NCBI GenBank assembly: GCA_963793425.1
Contig: CAWCAG010000005.1
Coordinates: 1,760,001 to 1,824,000 of the forward strand
From: an uncultured cyanobacterium
Lineage (GTDB): Bacteria; Cyanobacteriota; Cyanobacteriia; Cyanobacteriales; CAWCAG01
Direction of reading: 5' to 3'
DNA: 64,000 bases
The position numbers and the translations under genes are program-made. The notes below the pieces were generated by a model, which did no database searches, was not told the DNA's origin, and saw only the letters and a list, made by a program, of their open reading frames with translations. The first letter of the stretch is position 1. Every line of letters starts with the position of its first letter. Shown one piece after another: positions 4,343 through 8,232 of this stretch.

Positions 4343-4456
4343 CAAACTTAGTCTAGATTCCTTGGAAGCAGCAATTGTAGCAGCACGGAGTAAAACACTT
4401 GTTTCTCAAAAAGAGGGAACTGGAAACAGGGAATAGAGGTAACAAAACATACTCCC

Positions 4457-4532
4457 GTAGGTTGGGTTGAAGTCATGAAACCCAACACCATTAAGCTTTT
4501 CGTTGGGTTGCACTTTGTTTAACCCAACCTAC
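4457..4532. repeat. GTAG...CTAC inverted REP doublet (REPIN-like short dispersed repeat)
   Basis: gtaggttgggttgaa...tttaacccaacctac with internal gttgggtt/aacccaac hairpins. Confidence 0.8.
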
Positions 4533-4556
4533 CTTTGATACCAAGCCTATTCACTC

Positions 4557-4664
4557 AGCCCGCCAAGCCCGCCAAGCCCGCCAAGCCCGCCAAGCCCGCC
4601 AAGCCCGCCAAGCCCGCCAAGCCCGCCAAGCCCGCCAAGCCCGCCAAGCCCGCCAAGCCCGCCA
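4557..4664 (+). repeat. Perfect 9-bp tandem repeat (AGCCCGCCA) x12
   Basis: Counted directly. Confidence 0.97.
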
Positions 4665-4823
4665 AGGATTAAAATCCCTGGCTAATAGCTTAAGTCATCT
4701 TGAAGATGACTACCAACTGCTGGGATTGTTCAAAGAAAAATTGTTACCAGATTTCCAAAAACTAATCTTCTAGTCATGTTTAGATGACTTGTGCTGTGAG
4801 CATCAGAATTTATTCACGAGCGG
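4661..4823. repeat. Inverted doublet of a hairpin-plus-palindrome REP-like element
   Basis: gccaaggattaaaatccctggc, then agtcatcttgaagatgact (4693-4711); mirrored by agtcatgtttagatgact (4772-4789) and a degenerate gaatttattc hairpin. Confidence 0.75.
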
Positions 4824-4886: not shown

Positions 4887-7800
4887 ATGGAAAGAGAGGA
4901 GTTGCTACGGGTAATTGAAGAGGCGGCTAGGACGGGAGCTAAGGAGTTGGATCTGGCGGGGCATGACCTGACGGAGTTGCCACCGGAGATTGGGCAGTTG
5001 ACCCAGTTGGAAAGTTTGGTACTGGGTAAAGTTGATCATGAAAGGAGAAAAATTCTTGGCAACAAGATTAAGAGCTTCCCTCCTGAAATAGTCCAACTCA
5101 CCAATCTCACCTCCCTTAACCTGAGTCGATAACCAGTTAACGGCACTACCAGCAGAAATAGTCCAACTCACCAACCTCACCGCGCTTTAACCTGAGTGGT
5201 AACCAGCTAACGGCACTACCAGCAGAAATAATCCAACTCACCAACCTCACCGAGCTTTACCTGGGTGGTAACCAGCTAACGGCACTACCAGCAGAAATAA
5301 TCCAACTCACCAACCTCACCTCCCTTTACCTGATTCGTAACCAGCTAACGGCACTACCAGCAGAAATAGTCCAACTCACCAACCTCACCTCCCTTAACCT
5401 GAGTAGTAACCAGCTAACGGCACTACCAGCAGAAATAGTCCAACTCACCAACCTCACCTCCCTTTACCTGATTCGTAACCAGCTAACGGCACTACCAGCA
5501 GAAATAGTCCAACTCACCAACCTCACCTCCCTTCACCTGGGTGGTAACCAGCTAACGGCACTACCAGCAGAAATAGTCCAACTCACCAACCTCACCTCCC
5601 TTGACCTGGGTCGTAACCAGCTAACGGCACTACCAGCAGAAATAGTCCAACTCACCAACCTCACCTCCCTTGACCTGAGGGGTAACCAGCTAACGGCACT
5701 ACCAGCAGAAATAGTCCAACTCACCAACCTCACCTCCCTTGACCTGAGTGGTAACCAGCTAACGGCACTACCAGCAGAAATAGTCCAACTCACCAACCTC
5801 ACTTCCCTTTACCTGAGTCGTAACCAGCTAACGGCACTACCAGCAGAAATAGTCCAACTCACTAACCTCACTTCCCTTAACCTGAGTGATAACCAGCTAT
5901 CGTCACTACCAGCAGAGATAGCCCAACTCACCAACCTCACCTCCCTTGACCTCCGAGGCAATCCCCTCCCCATTTCCCCAGAAATACTTGGCCCTAAAAG
6001 CCTTTTCGAGAAACCTGGGGATATCAACACCATCCTTAACTTCTACTTCGCCACCCAAGACCCCAACGCCACAGAAAAACTCTACGAAGCTAAATTCCTC
6101 ATCGTCGGTGAAGGGGGTGCAGGAAAAACTTCCCTCGCCAAAAAGATCCAAAACCCCAACTACGAACTCGACCCCGAAGAAGAATCCACCCACGGAATAG
6201 AAGTTATTCAATGGCGCTTCCCTTTGGATAATGGGCAAGAATTTCGCGCCAATCTCTGGGACTTCGGAGGACAGGAAATTTACCACCAAACCCACCAATT
6301 CTTCCTCACCGAACGCTCCCTCTACGCCCTGGTGGCCGATACTCGCCAAGAAAACACCGACTTTCCCTACTGGCTTAACTCCATCGAACTGTTCGGAGGA
6401 GATAGCCCCGTGTTGTTAATTAAAAATGAGAAGAATGACCGCCCCTGCAACGTTAATGAAGCAAGACTGAAAAGGGACTTTCATTACATCAAAGAAATCT
6501 TACCCACCAATCTCAAAGATGGTCGGGGCTTAGAAGAAATTAAAAATGCCATCCGCTACCACATTAGCCGCTTAGAATATGTGGGCTATCCCATACTGAA
6601 AAAATGGGTGCGAGTGCGCTATGCCTTAGAAAACGATAGCCGCAACTACATCGACCAACGGGACTACTTCGCCCTCTGTAAAGGAAACGGAGTCAATGAA
6701 CGCTCAGAAATGCTGCGGATTAGCGACTTCCTCCATAAATTAGGTATCTGTCTTCACTTTCAAGAAGACTCCACCCTCAAACATATTGTTATCCTCCGCC
6801 CCGAATGGGCTACTAACGCAGTTTATGCAGTATTAAAAAACCAGAAAGTTGCGGCGGCTAAAGGTTTGTTTACTCGCTCTGACGTCAAGGAATATTTGGC
6901 AGGAAAGGCAATATGCCTACATGGAAGATGAGCTACTGCGGCTAATGAAGAATTTCAAACTCTGCTACCCCATTCCCGGTTTAAAAGAGCATTACATTGC
7001 TCCTCAATTGCTAGAGTTTGAGCCACCGGATTATGAGTTTGCAGAGAATGATAATTTAATGCTGCGCTACGAATATGAATTTATGCCCAAGGGAATTATT
7101 ACCCAGCTTATTGTGCGGCTTTATCGTTGGATTGAACAACAGCAACTGGTCTGGCGTAGTGGTGTGGTTTTTAATAATGGTCGCGCCCGTGCTGAAGTTA
7201 TCGAAACCTATCGTCCCTATAAAGGAGAAATCTGTGTTCAGGTTTCCGGCATCCACAGTAAAGAGCTTCTCAGCGTGGTTACTAATGAGATTGACCAAAT
7301 TAATAGTTCTTTTGAAAGAATAGATGTTAAGAAAAAGATTCCCTGCAACTGTAAAGAATGTCAAAATGATCCTGAACCCTATTATTTTGATTTGGAAACT
7401 CTCTATCGCGCCCTTAATAAAAGGCGTTATGAAATTGATTGCCACAAAAGTTTTGAAGATGTCAATGTTCGTAATTTGACGGCTGTGGTAGAAAACAATT
7501 TCTTTTCAGGGGAAGATAAAAAACGAATTGAGCAAGAAGAGTTTGAACGCTTAAAAGAGCGGCATACTGAATATTATCAACCTAATTCTAAGACCATGAG
7601 TTCTAAATTCCACATCAGCGCCGAGAATGTGCAAATTGTTGAAAGTGTTGCTCAAGGGGATGCGGTTATTCACAAATACGCTGACAACCCCGAAGTAAAG
7701 ACAGCCCTCGATGAGTTGTTAATCTTCCTCAAAGATTTACAAGGGAAGCACCCCGACGCTAAACCAGAAGAAGCAGGAGAGATTCTCAAGGCTGAAATTG

Positions 7801-8003
7801 TGGAGATGAAGCAAACTCAACCCCAAGGTTGGCAGAAGTTTGTACAACAGCTTCGCAGCTTGCCCCAGGATATAAGAAGTCCTGAACGTATAATGCAAGC
7901 TAGCAAGTCTGCCCTAGTGCAAGTGACTACAGATTTAACGGATAATGTTTTTCTCAATGCTGGGGTAGCTTTTCTTGATGGTTTAAGTGGGGAACCAGAA
8001 TAA
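4887..8003 (+). CDS. LRR-Roc-COR (Roco-family GTPase) with C-terminal Cys-rich and helical module; three +1 frameshifts in this sequence
   Basis: N-cap, 13 LRRs, Roc P-loop GEGGAGKTS, STHG, WDFGGQE, NEKND, COR (LHKLGICLHFQ, WRSGV). Extra bases near 5127-5130, 5188-5191 and 6890 split it into track ORFs 4887-5132, 6224-6931 and 6849-8003; these may be consensus errors. Confidence 0.88.
5091..5962 (+). repeat. Tandem array of 69-bp LRR-coding units (12 full plus a capping unit)
   Basis: Units at 5091, 5161, 5231, 5300, 5369, 5438, 5507, 5576, 5645, 5714, 5783, 5852 and 5921; consensus (V/I)QLTNLTxLxLxxNQLTALPAEI. Confidence 0.97.
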
Positions 8004-8013
8004 TGAAATCACC

Positions 8014-8232
8014 AACCAATCTCATCTCTCAAACCCCAAGTCCGACACGAAATCAATTTCATCTCTCAAACCCCAAGTCGGTTTAAACCGACTTAACATA
8101 TTAGACAGAGAATTTATTCTCTGGCTGGCTCTGGCTGGCTCTGGCTGGCTCTGGCTGGCTCTGGCGGACTGGCGGACTGCTGGCTGGCTCTGGCCTGGCT
8201 GACTGGCGGACTGGCGGACTGGCGGACTGGCT
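8014..8232 (+). repeat. Third locus of the 37-bp unit plus palindromic core (8075-8094), followed by (CTGGCTGGCT) x4 and GGCGGACT repeats
   Basis: Direct match to the elements at 1882-1970 and 2693-2780. Confidence 0.93.

Follow-up and report, generated by a model that had tools for sequence, protein, structure and literature searches.

Why would a bacterial gene carry a long run of leucine-rich repeats (LRRs) that are nearly identical in their DNA and yet differ from unit to unit at a handful of codons? The question is raised by a gene at 4887–8003 (+ strand) of a 64,000-nucleotide stretch from an uncultured cyanobacterium (GenBank assembly GCA_963793425.1, contig CAWCAG010000005.1, positions 1,760,001 to 1,824,000), which we call the window. 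The gene encodes LRRs followed by Roc, COR-A, and COR-B domains and a C-terminal module of about 170 amino acids. We consider it probable that the repeat array is the ligand-sensing domain of an intracellular Roco ("AP-GTPase") protein whose design is like that of the NOD-like receptors (NLRs), and that three insertions in the gene as assembled are most likely artefacts. The gene illustrates well a type of receptor that has already been predicted; it is not a new system.

Repeat units and their variable codons

Tandem Repeats Finder identified a single array at 5085–5952, with a period of 69 bp, 12.6 copies, 93% matches, no indels, and a score of 1459. Anchoring on the start of each unit gave 13 tandem units of 69 bp (5085–5983, + strand), spaced by 70, 70, and then ten times 69 bp. 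(A first-pass annotation of this DNA, made from the letters alone, had placed the array at 5091–5962; it found the right array but clipped both ends slightly.) Each unit encodes 23 residues of the LRR type. The region matches Pfam's LRR_8 (E = 3.3e-64), and a structural match in the PDB is a Leptospira protein with 23-residue LRRs (4u08, E = 4.7e-130).

Across units 3–10, the scaffold is identical at the DNA level, and only five codons vary. Counted from the unit start used in the first-pass annotation, these are codon 3 (GTC or ATC), codon 10 (TCC or GAG), codon 12 (TAC, AAC, CAC, or GAC; that is, NAC with all four first bases), codon 14 (GGT, ATT, AGT, or AGG), and codon 15 (GGT, CGT, or AGT). 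These codons contain nine polymorphic sites, all nine of which are non-synonymous and none synonymous. The last four codons, which we call the x codons, make up 12 of the 69 nucleotides but hold eight of the nine polymorphic sites (hypergeometric P = 5e-7). The units at the edges of the array (1, 2, and 11–13) are more divergent. If each unit is summarized by its residues at the x codons, then units 3–13 read EYGG, SYIR, SNSS, SYIR, SHGG, SDGR, SDRG, SDSG, SYSR, SNSD, and SDRG. The first-pass annotation had described much of this pattern, and we recovered it exactly: the lack of synonymous differences in the scaffold of units 3–10, a V/I codon and four x codons as the only changes there, the codes of units 3–13, the code shared by units 4 and 6 (SYIR), and the codon that takes all of AAC, TAC, CAC, and GAC.

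When positions are numbered from the first L of the LxxLxLxxN motif, the variable codons are x3, x5, x7, and x8, plus position 19. In LRR proteins, x3, x5, x7, and x8 belong to the strand lining the solenoid's concave face, while position 19 is outside the LxxLxL strand motif. Given this textbook geometry and the in-register match to 4u08, x3, x5, x7, and x8 of the window array are predicted to face the concave sheet. The variable codons had been described as forming a single exposed face; this stands for the four x positions but not, by the same geometry, for the V/I codon at position 19.

The next question is whether the differences at x reflect selection. Within the window array, the proportion of non-synonymous differences (pN) at x3, x5, x7, and x8 is 0.337 and that of synonymous differences (pS) is 0.048, as computed from unit pairs that are not independent of each other; for the scaffold, pN is 0.020 and pS is 0.046. 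The sevenfold excess of pN at x argues that residue differences were kept or selected, since neutral x sites should resemble synonymous sites. We also considered related arrays. A search for relatives gave 290 stretches, 244 of which encode a relative, and 80 of these were kept for analysis. Variability peaks once more at positions 3, 5, 7, and 8 in 38 other arrays (1920 unit pairs), with 19, 16, and 18 next in line, and position 5 is almost everywhere D, Y, N, or H, encoded by NAC codons.

An alternative does without diversifying selection: slippage or unequal crossing-over would have enlarged the array recently, and a lack of constraint alone would explain the variable x positions. At the x positions of the 38 other arrays, pN is close to pS (0.336 versus 0.279; pN/pS of about 1.2), as this account would have it; variability at the x positions is common to all LRR proteins; and relatives such as L068, L030, and L049 contain stretches of identical units and blocks of several units that recur (the identical-unit stretches in L068 and L030 are the relevant ones here). 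However, unconstrained sites should not have diverged seven times as much as synonymous ones, as they have in the window array, and none of the nine polymorphic sites of units 3–10 is synonymous. The differences between alleles, which we describe below, also cluster at the x positions. We therefore find it improbable that selection played no part.

Homogenization of the scaffold and variation between strains

P0001 and P0006, which are partial proteins of other assemblies, match the window's protein at 99.5–99.7% identity over COR-B and the C-terminal module (371 residues). Their contigs end inside the array and may be mis-joined, so what can be compared is the last 3.5 LRR units. In these, P0006 differs from the window at two of 15 x positions and none of 66 other positions; P0001 differs at six of 15 x positions and one of 66 others (Fisher P = 1e-4). 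The proposal of a hypervariable receptor depended on an array that varies across strains, and both of these alleles do differ from the window within it. One of the changes is from S to E at x3. In the window, the codons for S and E differ at all three bases, and the resulting E-Y combination is that of unit 3. Although the alleles were compared as protein, this suggests the exchange of a cassette, not a point mutation. Near-identical alleles apparently also differ in unit content. Finally, we compared the window to Logan contigs of four sequencing runs from one study, which cover the array only in pieces of about 60–100 bp. The contigs from runs X2 and X3 have T>A at 5334, in an x7 codon.

The scaffold, on the other hand, differs between species in a uniform way. 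The consensus units of the window and of a Leptothoe relative (L030) have 15 differences outside the x positions, of which 13 are fixed in all units of both arrays. The array of an ortholog from another species of the same genus (genome G001) has seven such differences from the window's. Because every species has its own fixed scaffold, the sequences show that the scaffold is kept homogeneous by concerted evolution. Units 11 and 12 retain synonymous states that are also present in G001. Unlike the scaffold, the codes do not persist: the window and G001 arrays have 13 and 9 units, respectively, and share no series of codes.

How the variation arises can be narrowed down. The first-pass annotation had proposed a receptor diversified by recombination and suggested that donor cassettes with the 69-bp scaffold might be found elsewhere in the genome. 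The homogenized scaffold and the allele differences at x codons agree with the first part, but there are no such cassettes: a search of the 5.28-Mb genome (blastn, word size 7) found no donor cassette or template copy of the unit. The only other matches to the unit were a single unit in a remnant of a related gene on contig C7 (see below) and a 31-bp match at 87% identity. A scan of metagenome contigs for the scaffold pattern gave no matches either. We also considered targeted mutagenesis of the variable codons, either by a diversity-generating retroelement or from silent cassettes. The restriction of the variation to a few codons is what such a system would produce, and the genome has seven matches to reverse transcriptases. 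However, none of these is within the window, the nearest one on the same contig is about 600 kb away, and the substitutions among units are not adenine-specific. The features that define a diversity-generating retroelement (a reverse transcriptase close by, a template repeat, and changes specific to adenine) are thus missing, and so, according to the whole-genome blastn search, is the library of silent donor LRR cassettes that characterizes the variable lymphocyte receptors of lampreys. We regard targeted mutagenesis as largely refuted, with hardly any chance of being correct.

Instead, the units may be homogenized as their 51-bp identical blocks recombine within the gene by unequal crossing-over and gene conversion, and the same exchange may shuffle and duplicate the 18-bp variable cassettes that lie between these blocks. 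Point changes would mostly affect the first base of NAC-type codons, and selection for new binding surfaces would retain them.

Frame breaks in the assembled gene

As the mention of a "frame-repaired gene" in the first-pass annotation implied, the gene as assembled is not open: it is interrupted by three single-base (+1) insertions, all described here on the + strand. The first, at 5127–5130, affects unit 1 at its hypervariable codon x8: the sequence is CGAT, against CGT or GAT in other units, and a TAA stop results at 5130–5132. The second, at 5188–5191, affects the hypervariable codon x5 in unit 2, with TAAC in place of the TAC or AAC seen in other units. The third, at 6889–6893, is in COR-A and reads G+GAAT (the extra base is at 6889/6890); the alleles have AAT (P0001 and P0006) or a D codon (P0009) at this place. 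The encoded residue is N in P0001, P0006, and P0007 and D in P0009, and all four of these proteins are in frame at this site. P0001 and P0006 are open from the tail of the array to the stop codon. In addition, contigs from all four of the sequencing runs lack one base at 6889. (The run contigs are uninformative on the first two insertions and on the order of the units.) The other long open reading frames (ORFs) of the 64-kb window are open, so the frame breaks are not general assembly noise.

All three insertions are at sites that vary between alleles or between units, and each one reads as two merged variants. These locations, this form, and the open frame at 6889 in alleles and runs make it probable that the insertions arose in the consensus, as artefacts at places where co-existing variants differ, and that the organisms carry an intact gene. 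The 69-bp arrays break short-read assemblies, and long-read consensus sequences may acquire false frameshifts from them as well.

The obvious alternative is a real pseudogene: three genuine +1 insertions would have killed the gene, and the array would be a recent relic of past selection. There are three breaks within 1.8 kb while the other long ORFs of the window are open. The only other Roco locus in the genome (C7:282156-283917, or L022) is a truncated remnant, 88% identical over Roc-COR, which has lost its array and its start, has a TAG stop in Roc, and has an internal deletion in the C-terminal module. The same-genus ortholog in G001 (locus L006) has one frameshift. This frameshift has the same GAAT form as the one in the window's COR-A, but it can also be counted as decay. 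And in seven of the 80 relatives (L055, L058, L077, L081, L082, L099, and L101), the frame read from the Roc match stops prematurely, with fewer than 600 codons. The three breaks, the truncated remnant, the frameshifted ortholog, and these seven relatives make real decay of the gene plausible. On the other hand, random mutation would not be expected to place every insertion at a site that varies between alleles or units and to make each one look like merged variants; the scaffold shows no decay in units 3–10; and at 6889 the frame is intact in related populations and alleles. We think that a true pseudogene is unlikely, although this explanation deserves to be taken seriously. As for the seven relatives whose frames end early, one is on a record titled as a chromosome, and they could be pseudogenes or further assembly frameshifts.

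A more far-reaching reading of the artefacts is a long shot. The insertions fall at the first positions of codons (R/D, Y/N, and D/N), and they might be the imprint of two co-existing variants, so that the array of this multicellular cyanobacterium would be polymorphic within one natural population, or even within filaments, and would diversify on ecological time-scales by recombination between the 51-bp blocks of identity. If true, the array would be the bacterial equivalent, built on a GTPase, of receptors proposed to diversify rapidly or somatically in fungi and brown algae.

The encoded protein, its relatives, and known receptors

The frame-corrected protein has the domains of a Roco protein, as the first-pass annotation had proposed. 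The start codon, an N-terminal cap, and the first irregular LRRs are at 4887–5084 (from the translation; Pfam's LRR_4 and LRR_14 match 4887–5129), and this N-terminus is conserved in the proteins P0002 and P0004 and in the G001 ortholog. It has no hydrophobic stretch, so the protein is probably cytoplasmic. After the array come the Roc GTPase domain (6092–6430; Pfam Roc, E = 5.5e-25, residues 302–414 of the ORF at 5189–6928), with readable P-loop (GxxxxGKT) and DxxGQ motifs; COR-A (6599–7013; E = 1.1e-30), which is split by the third insertion so that profile positions 2–104 are in one frame and 100–143 in the next; and COR-B (7053–7478; E = 1.6e-40), which a profile search of the genome found at the same place. 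The C-terminal module of about 170 amino acids, with the stop codon, is at 7491–8003, where relatives carry an effector. All of these are on the + strand. Pfam thus places Roc, COR-A, and COR-B in that order, with COR directly after Roc, which is what defines a Roco protein. Besides 4u08, the PDB matches include the Roco protein of Chlorobium tepidum (6hlu, 8r4b, and 3dpu; E values to this protein are 2.1e-83 and 8e-83) and LRRK2.

The closest named relatives are from Leptolyngbya, Leptothoe, and Leptolyngbyaceae (71–77% identity over Roc-COR), followed by many from Nostocales; the near-identical alleles are labelled "Spirulinaceae cyanobacterium." The gene's presence is patchy: there is a match in 17 of the 41 genomes searched, including the window's own (G000). 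Arrays with 69-bp units, of 2.4 to 24.2 copies, are present in 70 of the 80 relatives, and in 30 of the 80 the arrays have at least 90% matches.

With repeats like these, the unit number and order of an array might themselves be assembly artefacts. Near-identical repeats are hard to assemble, and the four runs cover the window's array only in short pieces. Among the 80 relatives, the contigs of 25 stop at most 1.1 kb upstream of the Roc match, the upstream flank is cut in 29, and about five are cut short downstream; since contigs end mostly upstream of Roc, the arrays do break assemblies. However, the window array has distinct cassettes in a fixed frame, and pieces from run X1 have no differences from units 4 and 12. 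Furthermore, independent alleles share the last units, and arrays of 6.2, 11.3, and 24.2 copies are present in relatives whose chromosomes are complete. That the array's structure was created by the assembler seems very unlikely.

The C-terminus could be read for 73 of the 80 relatives (some loci are duplicates on one contig). By Pfam, 50 of these end in TIR_2, 12 in CHAT, and five in EAD1, while six have no Pfam family; the six include L030, which shares the window's C-terminal module. The nearest relatives by Roc-COR bear differing C-terminal ends. The sensor may be exchanged too: P0002 and P0003 are near-identical from Roc to the end, but their LRR domains are wholly different (a highly uniform array in one versus divergent repeats in the other), and this comparison suggests the swapping of whole sensors.

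The layout, then, is a repeat sensor, an NTPase switch (Roc-COR), and a C-terminal output module. By analogy with the relatives that end in TIR, CHAT, or EAD1, binding of a ligand (probably an invader's protein) would act through the Roc-COR GTPase switch to free the output module. A reading of the protein as an immune-like sensor would fit these ends.

Could the protein instead be a housekeeping or developmental signalling GTPase, with LRRs that bind a partner from the cell itself and unit-specific residues under purifying selection? The function of bacterial Roco proteins is not yet established by experiment, and the neighbouring genes (for an Era GTPase, an IS200 transposase, and a Uma2 nuclease) are not of a defence type. 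But a conserved self partner does not sit well with codes and unit numbers that are wholly different between two species of one genus, with near-identical alleles that differ at x positions, or with a gene that occurs in a minority of related genomes and whose relatives end in TIR, CHAT, or EAD1. We consider a housekeeping role to be quite unlikely.

Several other results weigh against the overall reading, in addition to the frame breaks, the modest pN/pS in other arrays, and the lack of an intact paralog. Our literature search, in an incomplete library, found no experiment that ties bacterial Roco proteins to defence. The unit number and order in the window are those given by the assembly. 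PADLOC gave no match for the pieces of the window gene or for P0006 (PADLOC has no model for a Roco protein). The C-terminal module has no Pfam match at E ≤ 0.01 and nothing meaningful at E values up to 10. Nor is there a second copy of the module in the genome, apart from the C7 remnant, and because of this the multiple-copy adaptor pattern that has been described for effector-associated domains (EADs) does not apply. The module is seen only on five Roco-type proteins and L030. A poor AlphaFold2 model of it, from an alignment of seven rows, is all-helical (mean predicted local distance difference test score of 56.6; predicted template-modelling score of 0.45). In the ESM Atlas, the module leads to cyanobacterial clusters without names and to a sub-threshold TCAD2 lead at 0.89.

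The first-pass annotation had named the array as the best candidate in the window for an undescribed system. This is not supported: the class has been predicted by Kaur, Iyer, Burroughs and Aravind (eLife 2021, PMC8195603), and published work also covers bacterial NLR-like proteins whose repeats show high internal conservation (HIC). In the parts of the 2021 paper at hand, LRR-"AP-GTPase"-COR conflict systems with rapidly evolving LRRs are described, and a counter-invader role is predicted for them. The window gene has the rapidly evolving N-terminal LRRs, the AP-GTPase (Roc), and the COR of that class, as well as its variable C-terminal position, and the TIR, CHAT (caspase-like), and EAD1 domains of the class are found on the window gene's relatives. 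It differs from these systems in that its own C-terminal module has no match in Pfam or PADLOC, whereas 67 of the 73 relatives have TIR_2, CHAT, or EAD1. What goes beyond the text of PMC8195603, as far as those parts extend, is the nucleotide-level homogenization and position-specific variation of the window's array. In the portion at hand of an earlier paper by Kaur et al. (2020, PMC7159879), LRR arrays were not found. A nucleotide-level treatment of LRR arrays in bacterial Roco proteins did not turn up in our literature search of the same incomplete library.

Such HIC repeats are discussed in a preprint by Dyrka et al. (2020) and by Ament-Velasquez and Saupe (2026, PMC13449251); the parts of these that we drew on are both centred on ATPases. 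As in the HIC sensors of fungal and bacterial NLRs, described in those parts of PMC13449251, the window's units are near-identical (93% matches over 12.6 copies, where HIC repeats are about 80–90% identical or more), and variation is at the predicted binding positions, with an excess of amino-acid change (the pN of 0.337 versus the pS of 0.048). The strain alleles P0001 and P0006 differ in repeat content, although both of their contigs stop within the array. Also shared are the shuffling of repeats, which is at once cause and consequence, and the breaking of short-read assemblies. However, the sensors described there are STAND ATPases (NACHT or NB-ARC), mostly with WD40, TPR, or ANK repeats, while the window gene has LRRs and a Roc GTPase. 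Judging from its sequence, the window gene works like the HIC NLRs but lies outside that class, because its switch is a Roc GTPase and not a STAND ATPase.

A second parallel is with brown-algal proteins that are candidates for immune receptors. In the parts at hand of Zambounis 2012 (PMC3341825) and Teng 2024 (PMC11378527), these ROCO proteins also have LRR-Roc-COR and fast-diversifying LRR units, and they are proposed to be immune receptors. According to the sections of PMC13449251 that concern them, the brown-algal genes have one exon per repeat, exon shuffling, alternative splicing, and weak internal conservation, while the window array is one continuous ORF.

The Roco protein of Chlorobium tepidum, the bacterial model of LRRK2 whose structures were matched above, has the same LRR-Roc-COR order. 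Bacterial Roco proteins have been studied as models of the Parkinson's-disease protein LRRK2. Here, one cyanobacterial Roco family, the window's locus and its 80 relatives, resembles at nucleotide resolution the hypervariable NLR receptors of fungi: it has a homogenized scaffold, diversified predicted binding positions, alleles that differ between strains, and TIR, CHAT, or EAD1 ends. The computational prediction that these GTPases are immune sensors gains concrete support from this resemblance. Intact relatives with TIR or CHAT in culturable strains of Nostoc, Scytonema, and Calothrix are candidates for testing it.

A third match to COR-B in the genome (C5:1062088-1062771, a 228-amino-acid open frame, E = 1.6e-22) was not counted as a Roco gene, as the surrounding listed ORFs contain no LRR or Roc part.

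The IS200-type transposase gene is at 2006–2449 (Y1_Tnp, E = 1.7e-31), with a tandem repeat (2478–2734; 37-bp unit, 6.9 copies) after it. Some 220 bp upstream of the window gene's start codon is a perfect 9-bp repeat of 12.2 copies (4557–4666), and G-rich repeats of 8–10 bp (8119–8231) lie just downstream of the stop; their unit is approximately the reverse complement of the upstream 9-bp unit. At the equivalent place upstream of the G001 ortholog, there is a different repeat, with a 7-bp unit and 13 copies (L006, 652–742). A small hairpin-like element occurs at 4456–4540 and 4659–4715. Run contigs have loose ends at around 4457, 4489, 4658, and 4711–4715, which suggests short dispersed repeats at several sites in the genome.

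Other high-identity tandem arrays in the genome are at C7:1-2874, C9:634503-635193, C5:1990458-1991256, and C9:51110-52232. They include arrays with a 66-bp period (24.5, 11.7, and 10.5 copies; 87–91% matches) and with a 126-bp period (94–97% matches), and given these periods, the arrays may encode repeats.

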